The translations under genes were made by a program, and so were the position numbers. Of a stretch of DNA of 64,000 bases, positions 615 to 37,130 are shown in pieces (positions within the stretch are counted from its first letter, which is position 1; each line of letters opens with the position of its first letter). Source of the DNA: Escherichia phage vB_EcoM_SA20RB; sequence record OL960581; one strand, 5' to 3'. The notes beneath the pieces were generated by a model. That model did not search any database. It saw only the letters and a list, made by a program, of their open reading frames with translations, and was not told the origin of the DNA.

Positions 615-1630
615 TGTGTTGCCTCTACATATAACTGATTTGCATATTGAATAAGTGCTTCGCGATCAGAATCAGTGATGTCTGGAATTGCATTAATGTA
701 TTCTTCCATCAACGTCTGAAGAGATTGAACTTCAACTTCTTCACTATCATCTGACTCGACAGAGTTATCAATCTTTGACACAACTCGTAATGAATGCACA
801 ACTTTTTCTAGTTCAGATTCGAACTTCGTCAGATTTTTGTCTACTTCAGTTACTATAACACGCACTGACAGATTTGTAAAATCTTTATAGTCAATTTTTC
901 CCTTAAATGGATATTGAATTCGACGATGCCAAGTAGTGTTGTTTGGAATAAATTCCATTCGTTCTGTTTCTGTATCAAACATCCAGAACCCACGAGGGTC
1001 ATTCTCGTCACCCGCAGTTAGTGTCCATGGTGTCCCAATATATCTGACGTTAGCAGCCTCAGAGATAGTATGGAAGTGACCAGACCACACTTCTTTGTAA
1101 GTCTTAAGGAAATCAGGTTCAAGACCGTGAGATTTCATTCCTTTATAAAAATAAAATCCATTCAGTTCCCAGTGACCAACACAAAAAGAAGCAGATGAAG
1201 TTTTGATGTGTTCAAGAATTTCACCAGTGTTTTCTTCACACATCCAAGGAATTAAATCAATCAAACATCCGTCAAAATCTACTGTAGTAGGCTTATCATA
1301 TACTTTAACATTAGGATATTTAGCCAAAAGCTCAGTAGAAGCATTTGGATGCATTACATTTTTATAGTGGAGATCGTGATTTCCTACAATAGTATGTAAT
1401 GTGATTCCAGCGGCATCAAGCATTTGAACTATTTCACGGGCAAACTCCATAGTTTTATGCGTGATCGCTTTTCGTACATCAAAAATATCACCGTATTGAA
1501 TCCATACAGTAATTCCATTTTTCTTAGAATATTCTATCGCTTGCTTAATTCCATCAATTTGAATACCGCGAATCCATTCATCATCAGCTTTAACGCCTAA
1601 ATGCCAATCACCCAAGTTTAGTATTTTCAT
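611..1630 (-). CDS. 47: Recombination endonuclease subunit gp47 (Mre11/SbcD-like phosphoesterase)
   Basis: 339 aa; N-terminus MKILNLGDWHLG and GNHD metallophosphatase motifs; length matches T4 gp47; adjacent to 46. Confidence 0.93.
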   Translation of the reverse strand: MKILNLGDWHLGVKADDEWIRGIQIDGIKQAIEYSKKNGITVWIQYGDIFDVRKAITHKTMEFAREIVQMLDAAGITLHTIVGNHDLHYKNVMHPNASTELLAKYPNVKVYDKPTTVDFDGCLIDLIPWMCEENTGEILEHIKTSSASFCVGHWELNGFYFYKGMKSHGLEPDFLKTYKEVWSGHFHTISEAANVRYIGTPWTLTAGDENDPRGFWMFDTETERMEFIPNNTTWHRRIQYPFKGKIDYKDFTNLSVRVIVTEVDKNLTKFESELEKVVHSLRVVSKIDNSVESDDSEEVEVQSLQTLMEEYINAIPDITDSDREALIQYANQLYVEATQ

Positions 1631-2231
1631 GGTGTCTTTTCCATCCTAATTTAGCTGCTTTTGAAACTAGTTCTTTAATTTTTCCTTTTGTCCATTCAGG
1701 ACCAGGAGGTTCATGACATAACATTTGCTTAACTCCGTTATTATACCATTTTTTACCTTTATTATGTGATGAAGCTTTAAATTTATTTGACCTTCCTTTT
1801 ACATAACCTTCTGGAATATACGGTAAAAAGGCAGATTTTCCTGTTAATGGGTCATGTGAATGTATGTTTCCTTTACAATTATGAGAACCATATAATGGAT
1901 GATTTTGTCCTTTAATATCTCTTCCAAATGAACCTTTTGGAGCAGCATATGACATATTAAAGAATAATGGATTTTTAACCGCATCATGCAAACGTTGATA
2001 ATATAGCTCGCATTTAATAGCTTCTTCGCGTGTATCAAATTCATCTAAAATGCATGAATCAAATAAATGTGGGTTATTTGAAAGTTCTTCATTATAAATT
2101 TTCTTATACTTTTTAGATAAAACTGATCCATGATATCCGGCTAAATGCCTGTCTAAAGATGTAGATCCAATATAAAAAGGAGGAAGTTTATCTCCACTAT
2201 ATATTGTTAAATAAGTTATATATTTTTTCAT
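1608..2231 (-). CDS. GIY-YIG-like endonuclease-like protein (Seg-like), putative
   Basis: 207 aa; N-terminal YLTIYSG...FYIGSTS resembles a GIY-(X8)-YIG module; basic Gly/Lys-rich C-terminal half; overlaps the gp47 start by 23 nt. Confidence 0.5.
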   Translation of the reverse strand: MKKYITYLTIYSGDKLPPFYIGSTSLDRHLAGYHGSVLSKKYKKIYNEELSNNPHLFDSCILDEFDTREEAIKCELYYQRLHDAVKNPLFFNMSYAAPKGSFGRDIKGQNHPLYGSHNCKGNIHSHDPLTGKSAFLPYIPEGYVKGRSNKFKASSHNKGKKWYNNGVKQMLCHEPPGPEWTKGKIKELVSKAAKLGWKRHHENTKLG

Positions 2232-7650: not shown

Positions 7651-8121
7651 TTAATCATGTTTCCACACCCCATCGGTATTTGACCAAAGTCGCTGATTAT
7701 CTGATCCTCGCCACAGCTTTTTGGTAGGAAGATTTTTCTCATACTTCCCATCAATAATAACATCAACATATTTAAGCATTTCTAGTTGTTTAATATCTTC
7801 AAATTTATATCCTGTCCACAACCAAATGCTTTTATTGGAATAAAGATTTTTTACTGTTTGAACCACAGAGTGAATAACATCTCGGTTATCAGGATAGAGA
7901 GGGTCTCCTCCAGTTATAGTTAATCCTTCTATATAATCATTATTCAAACATTCAATTAATTGTTCTAGTGTTTCACCAGTGAATGGAACACCATTTCTAG
8001 CATTCCATGTTGATTTATTATAACACCCTTCGCATTTATGCAAACAACCTGTAACGAAAAGAACTGTCCTGCATCCAGGACCATTAACAAAGCAGCATGG
8101 GTATATTCTGTCATAATTCAT
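7651..8121 (-). CDS. nrdG: Anaerobic ribonucleotide reductase activating protein (radical SAM)
   Basis: 156 aa; CxxxCxxC cluster in GCLHKCEGCYN; length matches T4 NrdG. Confidence 0.92.
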   Translation of the reverse strand: MNYDRIYPCCFVNGPGCRTVLFVTGCLHKCEGCYNKSTWNARNGVPFTGETLEQLIECLNNDYIEGLTITGGDPLYPDNRDVIHSVVQTVKNLYSNKSIWLWTGYKFEDIKQLEMLKYVDVIIDGKYEKNLPTKKLWRGSDNQRLWSNTDGVWKHD

Positions 8122-8950
8122 TTATATATTTCCAATTATAGCCTTCAACACTTTTACGTTCGCCATTTAAACATTTTAAAATATTTCCTTTGCTAGAAAT
8201 ATTAAAATATTTTGCTGCGTCTGGTATATAATTAAATGTTTTTAAAAGAACACCATCTTTATATGCGCCAAATAAATTAAGAGTATATTTTTCTCGAAGA
8301 CGCTGATGTTTCCTTTTCATAACCTCAGGATTTGCATACGCCAACCTCAATGAATTTCTATGTTTTTCTTTTACTTCAGGTTTTTGCATTGCTAACTTAG
8401 TTAGCCTGGAAATTTTATTTCTAACTTCGTCAGTTTTCATTGCATTTGACAAATTTAATAAAGTTTTATTTCTAACTTCAGGTTTTTGCATTGCTAACTT
8501 AGTTAGTTCTCTATGTCTTTTTCTAAAATCGTCATCCTTCCATATATTTTTCGATAATTTTGACATAGAGCGGTGAAATAATTCCTTTTCACTGGAATAC
8601 AATTTAAAAATTTCATCCAATTCATCCGCATTAAATCTATCGGTATTCGAGTTTATCATTCTATGAAAGGCATAACACATTTTACTATTGCTTGTTTTAG
8701 CTAAATAGTAATGAGCTAACGCATGGTCATAATATGACAAATTAACAATATTCCATTTATCTGTTTTATATTCAGGAAATATAGATTTGGGAAGCACGTG
8801 ATGTGCTTCCGTTTTTCCTTTTATTTTAGGATTATTATAATTTTTTGTTATCAAATCAACATATGACAATAGTAAATCATTATTTTCTTCAAATATTAAA
8901 GCTAATTTATCATTCACAAAATCGCAAGGATAAAATCTATCGTAATTCAT
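8111..8950 (-). CDS. mobC: HNH-family homing endonuclease-like protein (MobC-like) between nrdD and nrdG
   Basis: 279 aa; HNH-like EAHHVLPKS...NIVNLSYYDHALAH; repeated TKLAMQKPEV module; same position as T4 mobC. Confidence 0.75.
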   Translation of the reverse strand: MNYDRFYPCDFVNDKLALIFEENNDLLLSYVDLITKNYNNPKIKGKTEAHHVLPKSIFPEYKTDKWNIVNLSYYDHALAHYYLAKTSNSKMCYAFHRMINSNTDRFNADELDEIFKLYSSEKELFHRSMSKLSKNIWKDDDFRKRHRELTKLAMQKPEVRNKTLLNLSNAMKTDEVRNKISRLTKLAMQKPEVKEKHRNSLRLAYANPEVMKRKHQRLREKYTLNLFGAYKDGVLLKTFNYIPDAAKYFNISSKGNILKCLNGERKSVEGYNWKYINEL

Positions 8951-10230
8951 TGGTGTTTAACCCTATGCATGATTTCTTTATTTTTTCCGAGATTAAATCC
9001 GCGTTCATTCGGATTTCCCAAATAACCACAAGTTCTTCTTATTGTGTTCATCTTTTTAGGATCAGTTTCTCCACAAATAGAACAAACAAATCCGTTTTCA
9101 GTAGGAGTCATTTCATGTGTACTTCCACATGTAAAACATTTATCTACTGGCATGTTAACACCAAAATAATCTAAATGTTGTGCAGCATAATCCCATACAG
9201 CCTCAAGACCTTTTAAGTTATTTTTCATATCAGGAAGTTCAACATAAGAAATGTGACCACCTGTCGCAATGAAATGATATGGGGCTTCGCGAGAAATCTT
9301 TTCAAATGGAGTGATATTTTCTTCTACTGAAACATGGAAACTATTAGTGTACCAGCCTTTATCAGTAACATCTTTTACACTTCCATATTTTTCAGTATCA
9401 AGTTTACAGAAGCGATAACAAAGGTTTTCAGCAGGTGTAGAATACAAGCTAAAAGCAAAACCAGTTCTTTCAGTCCACTGCTTAAGACGAGCATTCATTT
9501 TAGTTAAAATTTCCTGTCCAATATCACGACCGACAAGAATATTCAATTCGTGAATACCAATGTATCCTAGGGACACTGAACTTCTACCGTTTTTAAATAA
9601 CTCAATTATGTCGTCATCAGGTTTAAGACGAACCCCGAATGCACCTTCTTGGTAAAGAATAGGAGCAACAGTAGCTTTAACTCCTTTTAAGGAACTAATT
9701 CTACACATCAATGCTTCAAAACATAAATCCATTCTCTCATTGAACAATTCGGCAAATTTCTGTTCATTGAACTGTGTTCCAATATAAGAATCTAATGCGA
9801 TACGAGGAAGATTCAGTGTTACAACACCAAGATTATTACGTCCATCAAGAATTTCATTACCAGTCGAATCTTTCCATACGCTCAAGAAACTACGGCAACC
9901 CATTGGAGAAACAGGAACAGATGAACCAGTGATAGCTCTATTGTTCTTAGCTGAAATAATATCAGGATACATCCTTTTGCTTGCACACTCTAGAGCAAGC
10001 TGCTTAATATCATAGTTCGGATCGTCTTTGTAAAGATTAACACCTTCTTCAACGAACATGACAAGTTTAGGGAAAATAGGAGTTATCCCATCACGACCAA
10101 GACCTTTGATACGATTTTTCAGAATTGCTTTCTGAATCATTCGTTCAGTCCAGTCAGTTCCCGTACCAAATGTAATTGTTACAAAAGGCGTTTGACCATT
10201 AGAGCTGAAAAGTGTATTTACTTCATCATT
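8947..10230 (-). CDS. nrdD: Anaerobic ribonucleotide reductase NrdD, exon 2 (5' boundary approximate)
   Basis: C-terminal RRTCGYLG glycyl-radical motif and CxxC...CxxC zinc site; the ORF's first ~16 codons (TTG start) are intron read-through. Confidence 0.88.
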   Translation of the reverse strand, partial: NDEVNTLFSSNGQTPFVTITFGTGTDWTERMIQKAILKNRIKGLGRDGITPIFPKLVMFVEEGVNLYKDDPNYDIKQLALECASKRMYPDIISAKNNRAITGSSVPVSPMGCRSFLSVWKDSTGNEILDGRNNLGVVTLNLPRIALDSYIGTQFNEQKFAELFNERMDLCFEALMCRISSLKGVKATVAPILYQEGAFGVRLKPDDDIIELFKNGRSSVSLGYIGIHELNILVGRDIGQEILTKMNARLKQWTERTGFAFSLYSTPAENLCYRFCKLDTEKYGSVKDVTDKGWYTNSFHVSVEENITPFEKISREAPYHFIATGGHISYVELPDMKNNLKGLEAVWDYAAQHLDYFGVNMPVDKCFTCGSTHEMTPTENGFVCSICGETDPKKMNTIRRTCGYLGNPNERGFNLGKNKEIMHRVKHQ

Positions 10231-11273
10231 ATATTCAGCATGAGTCGCAAATTCATGCCCGTTTATATGAAACAACAAAATTTGGATAGTCCATAGATAT
10301 GCAACGTTCTTTTATAGTGCTAGGATGAAAATTTAGCGCTTTAGCTGCTTCTATATAAGACGTATACTTAATACCGTCAACAACCACATATTCAGGAACT
10401 TTATGAATAGTAGTCTTAATACTCAAAACAAGAGGATGAGTTTCGACTTCACTTTCAGTGCAATTTAAATATTCCGCTGCTTTTTTAAAACTTCTAAAAG
10501 TTTTATTTTTAAGCTTTATCGATACTTGTTTTTTACTTTTTCGACTATTGATATTATTTTGCACATGTTCCTTAGATCTTCCGTTTTTAGCATAATATTC
10601 AGCTACAGAAGATTTTATATTGTTTTTATGAGATTCGGATAACACTTTACCCTTATGAGCATCTCTTAATTTTTGAATATGTTCTTCAGTATCCGGATGC
10701 TTATAAAACTTTTTACCGCCTATGGATTTATTTAAACATTTTTTGCTATAAAAATATTTACGTATGACCTCTTCTTCATGTTTTAATGCATCTTTATAAC
10801 TATCAAATGTTTTTAAAATTATCCATTTAGTAGGTGTATCAGTTTTTAAGCGTTCATTTATATACTTAGATGACGTTGTGTAAGTTTTCCAGTTTGTGGG
10901 CTTGTTTTTAATTGTTCTAAATTTTTTATAACCGATATAAATGTCGCCATTAGAAAACTTAACTAAGTATGTAAATGCGTCTTTATCTTTTATTTTAGTA
11001 CAACGTCTTTTTATCCATTTCATTGTTTCACCTCGTATTCATAAGATAATCTTATTTATACAAGATGACTGCTGCATGTCGCCATGCAGATTAGACTATA
11101 TCTTCATCTTTCGATGCCGGCCGTTTCGAATAGCATTAGCTTCTATTCTACACCGTTACATTCATCACGGTTAGTCGTTAGGCATTTAGTTCAAAAGAAC
11201 ATTTAGCACGGGATTGTCTACTAGAGAGGTTCCCCGTTTAGACCGGTTTTACATGAGCCTGAATTAAATTAAC
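10231..11273 (-). mobile_element. Group I self-splicing intron in nrdD (sunY-type), boundaries approximate
   Basis: nrdD frame broken by a stop at 11264; about 1 kb insert carrying an endonuclease ORF; ribozyme-core-like sequence CUAAACGGGGAACCUCUCUAGUAGACAAUCCCGUGCUAAAUG on the minus strand near 11150-11250. Confidence 0.8.
10253..11023 (-). CDS. Intron-encoded GIY-YIG homing endonuclease (I-TevII-like)
   Basis: 256 aa inside the nrdD intron; N-terminal FTYLVKFSNGDIYIGYKK GIY-YIG module; T4 I-TevII is 258 aa. Confidence 0.8.
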   Translation of the reverse strand: MKWIKRRCTKIKDKDAFTYLVKFSNGDIYIGYKKFRTIKNKPTNWKTYTTSSKYINERLKTDTPTKWIILKTFDSYKDALKHEEEVIRKYFYSKKCLNKSIGGKKFYKHPDTEEHIQKLRDAHKGKVLSESHKNNIKSSVAEYYAKNGRSKEHVQNNINSRKSKKQVSIKLKNKTFRSFKKAAEYLNCTESEVETHPLVLSIKTTIHKVPEYVVVDGIKYTSYIEAAKALNFHPSTIKERCISMDYPNFVVSYKRA

Positions 11274-11809
11274 TCATACGCCTGGAATGCATCGTATACG
11301 TCTTTTTCTGTTTTAGACTGGGCATAATTCAACGCATCAGCGATTTGCCATTTTTCTGCATCCTCAATATGTTTTGCATAGGTGCGTTTAACATAAGGAG
11401 AAAGTACTTTATCTACATTAGCAAAAGTCGTTCCGCCGTACTGATGTGAAGCAACCTGTGCAGTAATTTGTGCCATAATTGCAGTAGCAACGCCAATTGA
11501 TTTAGGAGTTTCAATCTGTGCATTGCCGAGCTTAAATCCGTTCTCAAGCATTCCTTTTAAATCTACTAAACAGCAATTAGTAAATGGAAGAGCAGGGGAA
11601 TAATCAATATCGTGGAAATGGATAATTCCGCTTTCATGCGCTTTCATAATAAAAGACGGGACCATATTTTTGGCAATGTGTTTAGACACAATACCAGCCA
11701 TAAGGTCCCGTTGAGTTGGAAAAACACGAGAATCTTTATTAGCATTCTCGTTCAAAAGGTCTTTATTAGTTTTATGAATCAATCCTTCAATTTCTTTTTC
11801 AATTGTCAT
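11274..11809 (-). CDS. nrdD: Anaerobic ribonucleotide reductase NrdD, exon 1 (3' boundary approximate)
   Basis: N-terminus MTIEKEIEGLIHKTNKDLLNE; ORF runs into the intron until the stop at 11264. Confidence 0.85.
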
Positions 11810-35771: not shown

Positions 35772-35848
35772 TGGTCGAGGCAGAAGGATTCTAACCTTCA
35801 ACCAACGGATTAGAAATCCGTTGCTCTATACAATTGAGCTATGCCCCG
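35772..35848 (-). tRNA. tRNA-Arg (anticodon UCU), CCA encoded
   Basis: Hand fold: acceptor CGGGGCA/UGCCUCG, D stem GCUC/GAGC, anticodon stem ACGGA/UCCGU with loop UUUCUAA, T stem GAAGG/CCUUC. Confidence 0.8.
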
Positions 35849-35851
35849 TAA

Positions 35852-36517
35852 TTAAAATTTCATTTTTCGACCTTTAAACCATCCTTCTGGAATTGGGTCA
35901 GTTTTCTTAATACGTTTAGAAACTTTTTCATCTAATGAATGAATCCACATCATACCAAATTGGGAATTCTTTTCACCCTGTTGATGTTTATTTCTGGCGT
36001 GAGATTCTTTCATTTTATTAATAGTTTCAGGAGTATGGGTCTTACCCAAGAAAGATTTAGTATTTAAAAATTTCTCTCTATACTTAGGATTATCCCAAAG
36101 CTGTTTAAACCTTTCTGAACCCATTTTACGATATTTTTCTTTAAGGTCTGGGTCGTTCTCAAATCTGGTTTTAAAAGCAGCAGCCCCTTTTAAGGAAGCT
36201 TCTTTCTTTTTATCCAAATATTCTTTAGTGTTTAAATGGTCCCAACCACCTTCACCACCTAATTTCAAATTATAAACATCAAGGCGCTTTAAAAACTCTT
36301 CAGTCACAATATTCTTTTCTGACTCAAACATAGAGGTTTTATCGTCAAAGAACTCTAATATTTCTTTAGAGAAATTTTCTATACCATACTTGTCTTGGGC
36401 TCTTTTTAATAATTTACCAGAACCCATATATCCATCATCTAAATTTTCGGTAGAATGAGCGCCTATATAGATTTTATTATTAATTTTATTTGTTATTTTA
36501 TAAGTGTAATGGAACAT
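35852..36517 (-). CDS. segB: GIY-YIG homing endonuclease SegB
   Basis: 221 aa; N-terminal YTYKITNKINNKIYIGAHST GIY-YIG motif; lies inside the tRNA cluster as T4 segB does. Confidence 0.85.
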   Translation of the reverse strand: MFHYTYKITNKINNKIYIGAHSTENLDDGYMGSGKLLKRAQDKYGIENFSKEILEFFDDKTSMFESEKNIVTEEFLKRLDVYNLKLGGEGGWDHLNTKEYLDKKKEASLKGAAAFKTRFENDPDLKEKYRKMGSERFKQLWDNPKYREKFLNTKSFLGKTHTPETINKMKESHARNKHQQGEKNSQFGMMWIHSLDEKVSKRIKKTDPIPEGWFKGRKMKF

Positions 36518-36558
36518 AAATATCTCCTATTTCTAAGAGTATTTATGTTCCCAAAATA

Positions 36559-36630
36559 TGGCCCTGGGTGGAATTGAACCACCATCTGGCGATTATGAGT
36601 CGCTTGCTTGAACCTTCCAGCTACAGGGCC
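36559..36630 (-). tRNA. tRNA with CAU anticodon (Ile by T4 synteny; Met-like anticodon)
   Basis: Hand fold: acceptor GGCCCUG/CAGGGCC, anticodon loop CUCAUAA, T arm GGUGG-UUCAAUU-CCACC. Confidence 0.75.
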
Positions 36631-36636
36631 TTGATA

Positions 36637-36709
36637 TGCTGATTGACGGAATCGAACCGCCGACCTTCTCATTACAAGTGAGTTGCTCTACCTACTGAGC
36701 TAAATCAGC
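36637..36709 (-). tRNA. tRNA-Thr (UGU)
   Basis: Hand fold: acceptor GCUGAUU/AAUCAGC, anticodon stem ACUCA/UGAGA with loop CUUGUAA, T arm GGCGG-UUCGAUU-CCGUC. Confidence 0.8.
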
Positions 36710-36716
36710 GAAATTA

Positions 36717-36803
36717 CGGAGGCGATAGGATTTGAACCTATGAGTCGCCGGAGCGACTGCCGGTTTTCAAGACCGGTGCATTAAACCACTCTGCCACGCC
36801 TCC
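36717..36803 (-). tRNA. tRNA-Ser (UGA), long variable arm
   Basis: Hand fold: acceptor GGAGGCG/CGCCUCC, anticodon loop CUUGAAA, variable arm, T arm UUCAAAU. Confidence 0.8.
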
Positions 36804-36805
36804 AG

Positions 36806-36879
36806 TCTCCGCGGCAGGATTTGAACCTGCGACATTCTGCTCCCAAAGCAGACGCTCTACCAAACTGAGCTACACGGAG
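36806..36879 (-). tRNA. tRNA-Pro (UGG)
   Basis: Hand fold: anticodon stem UCUGC/GCAGA with loop UUUGGGA; T arm GCAGG-UUCAAAU-CCUGC. Confidence 0.8.
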
Positions 36880-36891
36880 TAAATTAAATTT

Positions 36892-36963
<72 letters not shown>

Positions 36964-36969
36964 AAACTT

Positions 36970-37056
36970 TGGTACGAGAAGTGGGACTCGAACCCACAAG
37001 GAAATCATTCCGCAGCATTTTAAGTGCTGTGCCTTTACCAATTTGGCCATTCTCGC
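36970..37056 (-). tRNA. tRNA-Leu (UAA), long variable arm, CCA encoded
   Basis: Hand fold: anticodon stem CAGCA/UGCUG with loop CUUAAAA; T arm GUGGG-UUCGAGU-CCCAC. Confidence 0.8.
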
Positions 37057-37057
37057 G

Positions 37058-37130
37058 CTGGGAATAAAGGACTCGAACCTTTGCATCTAGCAGTCAAAGT
37101 GCTGTGCCTTACCAACTTGGCTAATTCCCA
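37058..37130 (-). tRNA. tRNA-Gln (UUG)
   Basis: Hand fold: acceptor UGGGAAU/AUUCCCA, anticodon loop CUUUGAC, T arm AAAGG-UUCGAGU-CCUUU. Confidence 0.8.

Follow-up and report, generated by a model that had tools for sequence, protein, structure and literature searches.

The nrdD gene of Escherichia phage vB_EcoM_SA20RB (sequence record OL960581) is interrupted by what we interpret as a mobile, self-splicing group I intron of subgroup IA2, which carries the gene for a homologue of the endonuclease I-TevII and sits at the position of the sunY/nrdD intron of phage T4. We put the probability of this reading at about 0.92. NrdD is the large subunit of the anaerobic ribonucleotide reductase. The DNA analysed, called the window below, is a 64,000-nucleotide stretch of this record, and all positions refer to it.

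The source of the window is placed by its sequence among the T4-like phages (Tequatrovirus), the first 20 kb being 96–97% identical to several deposited Tequatrovirus phages over approximately 93% of this length. The neighbourhood of nrdD lies entirely on the minus strand and consists of gene 49 (endonuclease VII), nrdD itself, a gene for a free-standing HNH endonuclease, and nrdG, with gene 49 and nrdG in the same order around nrdD as in T4. In T4 the gene between nrdD and nrdG is mobC (PMC2988022). For the window ORF between nrdD and nrdG we considered mobE and dropped it; this ORF is neither mobE nor mobC.

Two minus-strand open reading frames in the program-made ORF list correspond to nrdD. 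The frame at 11809..11264 is the 5′ part, with the C-terminus ...DVYDAFQAYELI*, and the frame at 10278..8947 is the 3′ part and includes ...YNDEVNTLFSSNG. The former matches positions 1–141 of the Pfam NRDD profile (E = 1.2e-40) and the latter positions 145–562 (E = 1.3e-122) together with the glycine-radical domain; since the two sets of profile positions are consecutive, the frames are parts of one gene. Between them lies an insertion of 1045 nt (11271..10227). Exon 1 (11272..11809, minus strand), whose junction was set against intronless alleles, comprises codons 1–179 and the first base of codon 180 and ends ...GCGUAUGAGU, with U at 11272, while exon 2 (8947..10226, minus strand) begins AUGAAGUAAAU, with A at 10226, and by its spliced translation runs from the last two bases of codon 180 to the stop codon. 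Joining them gives a NrdD of 605 amino acids that reads ...QAYE-Y-EVNTLF across the junction. UFV-AREG1 and RB14 carry intronless alleles with which this protein is colinear and which read GCTTATGAATATGAAGTAAAT at this point with no gap, and the junction is uninterrupted in approximately 620 phage records. Shifting the boundary by 1 nt in either direction loses the match to the intronless alleles, and the splice sites are thereby fixed through homology to those alleles combined with the group I rules of a U before the 5′ site and a G before the 3′ site. At the true junction exon 2 has neither a start codon nor a ribosome-binding site of its own, the TTG start listed for its frame being internal to the intron.

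The original prediction had placed a group I intron in nrdD at 10231–11273. The location was right, while the ends were off by 4 and 2 nt and the strand, which is minus, had not been stated. Its “YND” at the point where the nrdD frame resumes turned out to be in-frame read-through of the intron, as exon 2 starts at A10226. That nrdD is split by a group I intron is upheld by the consecutive NRDD profile parts, by the T4 insertion site and by the covariance-model search that had been proposed as a check. In a search of positions 10100–11400 the Rfam model RF00028 matched 11340..11072 on the minus strand with 72.4 bits (E = 3.9e-18; gathering score 50) over its full length, positions 1–253, and this match spans the region near 11150–11250 that had been picked out by eye as resembling a ribozyme core. 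On this E-value (4e-18) and that of the endonuclease ORF against I-TevII (1e-101), the insertion is a group I intron and not a chance resemblance. The Rfam run over the whole window at gathering thresholds reported 8 tRNAs only and missed the intron; the miss is due to the speed filters and is therefore no evidence of absence. For comparison, the T4 nrdD intron, known from experiment to self-splice, scores 105.3 bits with RF00028, above the window intron (72 vs 105), and a natural ORF-deleted copy of the window allele scores 70.9.

The intron (10227..11271, minus strand) starts UAAUUUAAUUC and ends ...GAAUAUAAUG, that is, ...UAAUG with the terminal G at 10227, and its removal restores the host reading frame exactly. 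Its first 201 nt (11071..11271, minus strand) hold the ribozyme core, made up of the P1 loop with the internal guide sequence, P3, P4, P5, P6, P6a, P7, P7.1, P7.2, P8, and P9. The guide sequence GCUCAU (intron nt 14–19; 11253..11258, minus strand) pairs with the last six bases of exon 1, AUGAGU (11277..11272), to give a P1 of 6 bp with a U·G wobble at the 5′ splice site. Folding for P1–P9, the other check proposed with the prediction, bore it out: the minimum free energy (MFE) fold of the exon plus intron nt 1–203 yields P1, P3, P4, P5, P6, P6a, P7.1, P7.2, P8, and P9. P3 is CCGGUC/GGCCGG and P8 has 4 bp only. P7, GACUA/UAGUC, forms the usual pseudoknot, and neither of its strands varies among the six related introns examined. 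The segment covering J8/7, P7′ and P9, which starts AAGAUAUAGUCU, is 91–94% identical to the T4 nrdD, td, and HMD-6 introns. Subgroup IA2 is marked by extra helices, P7.1 and P7.2, between P7 and P3′ in the classification of Michel and Westhof. Both are present here and in the MFE fold (ACCGU/ACGGU and GAAUAG/CUAUUC respectively), and by this mark the intron belongs to IA2, the phage T4 type.

At the 3′ end the intron runs through CGGG, the P9.2 hairpin and UGAAUAUAAUG to the splice site, a layout found also in the td, HMD-6, and nepoznato introns. P9.2 (10237..10259, minus strand) is GGCAUGA/UCAUGCU in the MFE fold, with GCAUGA/UCAUGC as its core helix, and contains the stop codon UGA of the endonuclease ORF, UGAAUAUAAUG and the 3′ splice site coming after it. 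A 4-bp P10 is possible, as a candidate strand UUCA (11260..11263, minus strand), read from the sequence, is complementary to UGAA at positions +2 to +5 of exon 2 (10225..10222). For P9.1, inspection by eye found no long-range pairing of the region after P9 with the region before CGGG, and the local hairpin that follows P9 is the better candidate.

To compare the fold with that of the T4 nrdD intron the helices were parsed by hand, because a MAFFT alignment of six intron cores misplaced P7.1 and P7.2 of T4 and td; in this parse the P9 helix of the Aeromonas phage was out of register, and its row is disregarded. Thirteen base pairs have changed on both sides and still pair (two in P3, two in P4, three in P6a, two in P7.1, and four in P9.2), pairing is also kept in one that differs on a single side, and no pair is broken. 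The changes in P9.2 affect four of its six core pairs, the T4 helix being GUAGAG/CUCUAC. P7.2 and P8 differ in length from those of T4 and are fully paired in each intron. Such a number of compensatory changes with no broken pair indicates that the two lineages have both been under selection for the same RNA fold. Our confidence that the window intron would splice is high.

The homing endonuclease ORF (10253..11023, minus strand; 256 amino acids plus stop) lies 3′ of the core, starting 48 nt past the end of P9 and ending 25 nt ahead of the 3′ splice site. BLASTP against T4 I-TevII (258 amino acids) gives a full-length alignment of 257 columns (E = 1e-101), which has 56% identity, 72% positives and two gaps of one residue each, the identity being even along the protein at 52–63% per 50-residue block. 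This degree of identity settles the family to which the ORF belongs. Between the two genes pN is 0.30 and pS 0.66, and the resulting dN/dS of approximately 0.25 points to purifying selection on the ORF.

Profile searches give a fainter picture of the same protein. Its N-terminal domain is of the GIY-YIG type, with residues 9–86 matching the Pfam family SegE_GIY-YIG (PF19835) by the small margin of 26.6 bits against a cutoff of 25, and residues 171–193 in the C-terminal part match NUMOD1 (25.3 bits, cutoff 22.8), a predicted separate DNA-binding module. The ORF also gives a weak I-HmuI NUMOD-like match. It matches PHROG 314, “homing endonuclease”, with E = 3.6e-29. T4 I-TevII itself scores lower on SegE_GIY-YIG (21.6 bits), and neither protein matches the canonical GIY-YIG model PF01541 at E ≤ 0.01, a model on which I-TevI reaches 68.8 bits; as I-TevII is also weak on these profiles, the weak signal is a trait of the I-TevII branch and not of the window copy. 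The motif positions FTY...YIG, HEE, and LNKS are common to the ORF and I-TevII and probably include the catalytic residues. NCBIfam holds no family for either protein, a search of PDB sequences with the ORF returned no match at E ≤ 1, and a single-sequence AlphaFold2 model (mean pLDDT 50.4, pTM 0.25) was of too low a quality to be compared with known folds. Table 1 of PMC2988022 counts I-TevII among the active GIY-YIG enzymes, and our confidence that the product of the window ORF cleaves DNA is moderate to high on the strength of its sequence.

The ORF is preceded by signals that could control its expression. Directly 3′ of P9, at the position of P9.1, is a hairpin (11028..11068, minus strand) with a stem of 11 bp capped by an inner stem of 6 bp, which has a predicted stability of −17.3 kcal/mol (z = −4.6; none of 200 shuffled sequences was as stable). 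Its 3′ arm buries the Shine-Dalgarno sequence GAGG (11034..11031), seven bases upstream of the endonuclease AUG. The T4 counterpart folds equivalently, at −15.8 kcal/mol. A motif search located TATAAATA, the consensus of the T4 late promoter, within the 5′ arm of the hairpin (11053..11060, minus strand). With 14 copies against 10.9 expected, the window shows no enrichment of this motif, which therefore takes its weight only from its placement, shared with the T4 copy, and from the published regulation in T4 (PMC2988022). Regulation of I-TevII by a late promoter and a hairpin that sequesters the ribosome-binding site has been described (PMC2988022); the anatomy of the window fits this model, and by analogy the timing of expression may be similar.

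The closest well-known relative is thus the T4 nrdD (sunY) intron, which the original prediction took the insertion to match together with I-TevII. This was correct as to the kind of element and the insertion site, and the intact 256-residue GIY-YIG frame predicted within the insertion proved to be the I-TevII homologue described above, but the two elements are not identical. They share the gene and the exact insertion point (...UAUGAGU/AUGAAGU..., the slash marking the insertion), the P1 guide GCUCAU, and the set of helices, P7.1, P7.2, and P9.2 among them. The T4 ORF also lies 3′ of the core, between the hairpin at the P9.1 position and P9.2, is likewise preceded by the TATAAATA motif and the sequestering hairpin, and has in common with the window ORF its start, MKW, and its C-terminal ...VSYKR. 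The introns are nevertheless only 66.4% identical in nucleotide sequence over 97% of the length, and they differ in length (1045 nt in the window, 1033 nt in T4). The window ORF is two residues shorter (256 vs 258) and has its stop within P9.2; P7.2 has 6 bp closing a 9-nt loop where T4 has 5 bp closing one of 4 nt; P8, whose 4 bp close a GAAA loop, is shorter than in T4; the hairpin upstream of the ORF has the additional 6-bp inner stem; and the silent sites of the flanking exons are unlike those of T4.

The distribution of the two types was determined in a collection of 50,697 phage records. Translated matches to the ORF fall into two classes. The first comprises 44 records with at least 95% identity, 40 of which have at least 99%, and the second comprises the remaining full-length matches, at approximately 56%, from T4 and its derivatives including T4T and from RB55, PST, fPS-2, U5, and others. 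Nothing in the collection lies between these classes, and beyond them there are only distant N-terminal matches near 31–34%. With nucleotide identities of 66.4% and protein identities of 56%, such a division into discrete classes makes the window element a homologous sister allele and not the T4 element. The whole locus is found at a coverage of at least 80% in approximately 43 records (best identity 99.6%), and the intron is present in approximately 43 and absent from approximately 620 related phages. Approximately 40 deposited Tequatrovirus genomes hold the window allele almost unchanged. The allele has therefore already been deposited many times, under generic annotation: its endonuclease is labelled “homing endonuclease”, “intron-associated endonuclease 2” or “putative GIY-YIG family homing endonuclease”, and nrdD is usually listed in these records as two CDSs. 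Text searches of the literature found no paper on the window allele, although their coverage was incomplete and they are weak evidence that it is undescribed.

The exons around the insertion site carry traces of the element. Five alleles were compared, and their exons differ only by silent changes at third codon positions. Within the 120-nt flanks these fall between −50 and +38 of the insertion site, except for one at +119 that is unique to the window; the rest of the flanks is identical. Position −2 is G in all three intron-bearing alleles examined and A in both intronless ones, which have the codon GAA for GAG and would give an A·C mismatch in P1. Phage 215Ecol030PP has the same intron with an internal deletion in the ORF (479 nt) and the exon markers of the window only up to +20, and in two other phages the ORF aligns in two pieces, which we read as probable frameshifts. 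These signs of mobility and decay match the cycle in which a homing endonuclease invades, becomes fixed, and decays.

Three other explanations were weighed against the reading of a mobile, self-splicing sister allele. That the element is simply phage T4's own nrdD intron with I-TevII would account for the same gene, insertion site and ORF position and for gene 49 and nrdG being in T4 order, and it was ruled out by the identities of 66.4% and 56% and the two discrete ORF classes; the differences in intron and ORF length add to this, as do the best matches of the 20-kb stretch, which are other Tequatrovirus phages at 96–97%. We give it practically no chance. It is also very improbable that the insertion does not splice at all and has left nrdD either as a pseudogene or as a gene split into two polypeptides, in the manner of Aeh1 nrdA split by mobE. 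Public annotations of the locus do give two separate nrdD CDSs, and phages are known in which split ribonucleotide reductase genes function without splicing (PMC3653736). Against this stand a complete group I core with 13 compensatory pairs and none broken relative to a self-splicing homologue, the U·G pair at the 5′ splice site, the terminal G and the exact restoration of frame. Exon 2 also lacks a start codon and a ribosome-binding site at the true junction, and exon position −2 is G where the intron is present and A where it is absent, as pairing in P1 requires.

The remaining explanation, that the intron splices while its endonuclease is inactive, or has drifted to a target preference other than that of I-TevII, so that the element is now inherited only vertically, is unlikely, although it deserves more weight than could be given to a split gene. 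The protein has diverged from I-TevII by 44%, its GIY-YIG profile match is marginal, the equivalent of the catalytic Arg has no confident assignment in the alignment, and the decayed copies of the window allele in other phages demonstrate that decay does occur in this lineage. The window ORF, however, retains its full length, uninterrupted by frameshift or stop, with a dN/dS of approximately 0.25, and it has kept the promoter, ribosome-binding site, and hairpin as well as the motif positions it shares with I-TevII. Moreover, a 100% identical protein occurs in many phages isolated on different hosts, and roughly 40 records are at or above 99%, a pattern more in keeping with recent spread than with slow vertical decay.

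The preferred reading, a mobile intron with a working endonuclease gene, draws on observed anatomy, homology, structural covariation, purifying selection, and patchy distribution, from which splicing, expression timing, and cleavage are predicted. nrdD would be transcribed through the intron, and the 5′ 200 nt of the intron would fold into the catalytic core. With the guide sequence GCUCAU paired to the exon-1 end AUGAGU, an external guanosine would attack just after the wobble-paired U; exon ligation directed by the terminal G at 10227 would then yield the mRNA for the 605-residue NrdD. In early read-through transcripts the ribosome-binding site of the endonuclease would be locked in the hairpin; late transcription from the TATAAATA promoter, beginning within the 5′ arm, would give RNA that lacks this arm and allows translation. 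The endonuclease would be expected to cut the intronless nrdD of co-infecting phages shortly downstream of the insertion site, and repair templated by an intron-bearing genome would transfer the intron, together with exon sequence close to it, to the genome that was cut, a process known as homing.

The core of the intron does not resemble a single relative throughout. Intron nt 30–71, the 42 nt of P4–P5–P6, show 100% identity to the td intron carried by T6 and many Tequatrovirus phages, compared with 80% to T4 nrdD, and J6/7–P7 is also identical to td. P7.1, in contrast, is 95% identical to the HMD-6 nrdD intron vs 80% to T4, and for the P1 region the highest identity, 84%, is to T4 nrdD. This pattern suggests that segments have been exchanged between related introns. 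Bryk and Belfort are said to have reported recombination between T4 introns experimentally in 1990.

The introns to which these segments point differ from that of the window in other respects. The td intron of T4 and T6, with I-TevI, has the same IA2 architecture, and likewise combines a GIY-YIG-type endonuclease with late promoter and hairpin regulation (PMC2988022). It lies, however, at another site in another host gene, has a P2, and holds its ORF in the P6a loop rather than 3′ of the core, and I-TevI matches the canonical Pfam GIY-YIG model, which the window ORF does not. The introns of HMD-6 and nepoznato (Phapecoctavirus-like) are also in nrdD, use the same guide sequence GCUCAU, have a P7.2 of the same size class, and are approximately 80% identical to the window in the core over intron nt 14–203, but they occupy a different nrdD site (...SMG/CRSF...) and have an HNH ORF in the P6a loop.

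A broader picture can be drawn from these comparisons, although we offer it tentatively and think it somewhat more likely to fail than to hold in full. It would have two anciently diverged alleles, 66% identical in nucleotide and 56% in protein sequence with no intermediates among the 50,697 records, occupying one nrdD homing site in Tequatrovirus phages, with the window type commoner than that of T4 in natural isolates. The core of the window type would be a recombinant mosaic, P4–P6 being identical to td and P7.1/P7.2 closest to the Phapecoctavirus nrdD intron, and the two endonucleases may differ in their tolerance of the silent variants at +8 to +38.

As for annotation, nrdD in this phage is better given as a single joined CDS, 11809..11272 plus 10226..8947 on the minus strand, rather than as two fragments, and the 256-residue ORF is better named an I-TevII-like intron endonuclease. 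The element is complete and of a kind already very well known, and it offers useful comparative material and no new principle. What it means for this family is that a clearly distinct sister allele of the classic T4 nrdD intron is widespread in field isolates and supplies compensatory-change data for the structure of the ribozyme, stages in the decay of the endonuclease, and hints of recombination between introns. If the tolerances of the two endonucleases do differ, the pair would be a natural system for studying isoschizomer-like competition between homing endonucleases and the shuffling of intron domains.

The core of the nrdD intron contains a 42-nt P4-P5-P6 block (intron nt 30-71, window 11201..11242, minus strand) that in sequence comparison matches the td intron carried by T6 and many Tequatrovirus phages at 100% identity, whereas within these 42 nt the T4 nrdD intron is only 80% identical to the window intron. 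A gene conversion or a shuffling of domains between td and nrdD introns may lie behind this pattern. Comparison of nrdD alleles shows that silent third-position differences crowd into positions -50 to +38 of the intron insertion site (window 11272..11321 and 10189..10226, minus strand), with just one more difference, at +119, in the rest of the 120-nt flanks. The cluster is either a polymorphism of the homing site or a co-conversion tract.

The endonuclease ORF is eroded in some copies of the intron. Escherichia phage 215Ecol030PP (PP328843.1, 448..926 of its locus) carries the window's nrdD intron allele in an internally deleted form of 479 nt, from which most of the ORF has been lost, and the core still scores 70.9 bits against RF00028, the Rfam group I intron model. 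In vB_EcoM_F1 and 236Ecol005PP the ORF aligns as two pieces, which probably reflects frameshifts.

Related introns occur in other phages. In HMD-6 and the Phapecoctavirus nepoznato, nrdD is split by a related IA2 intron with a core approximately 80% identical to that of the window intron and the guide sequence GCUCAU common to all. The insertion site (…SMG|CRSF…) differs from that of the window intron, and the ORF is of the HNH type, housed in the P6a loop. With the ORF in place these introns score 32.9 and 39.3 bits respectively, under the RF00028 gathering score of 50, and are therefore likely to be overlooked by routine annotation. The nrdD gene of Vibrio phage F90 (368..2668 of its locus) is annotated as three pieces, the first two separated by an HNH endonuclease ORF, and directly after this ORF positions 1501..1637 match nt 85-204 of the window intron core at 73% identity. 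Here, too, an intron probably splits nrdD. In Aeromonas phage 2L372D the large terminase gene is interrupted, at about 783..1065 of its locus, by a group I intron that belongs to the same family but has no ORF (85.3 bits, RF00028); the gene is annotated as two CDSs with nothing between them.

Beyond the intron, the window contains a cluster of eight tRNA genes (35775..37130, minus strand; Rfam search, 59.9-72.9 bits) that resembles the tRNA region of T4. Between nrdD and nrdG lies a 279-aa HNH/NUMOD-like homing endonuclease ORF (8111..8950, minus strand), which overlaps the stop codon of nrdD as well as the start of nrdG. T4 has mobC at this position (PMC2988022), but the window ORF is not mobC, the sole match being 38% identity across 60 aa around the HNH motif. 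A profile search matched the ORF to PHROG 655 (E = 5.7e-37), and it is present at at least 95% identity in about 21 phage records, such as vB_Eco_OMNI12. Its first 13 residues, MNYDRFYPCDFVN, echo the NrdG start, MNYDRIYPCCFVN, at 11 of 13 positions. This N-terminus has the look of a second copy of the target gene's 5′ end, left behind when a free-standing endonuclease gene inserted.
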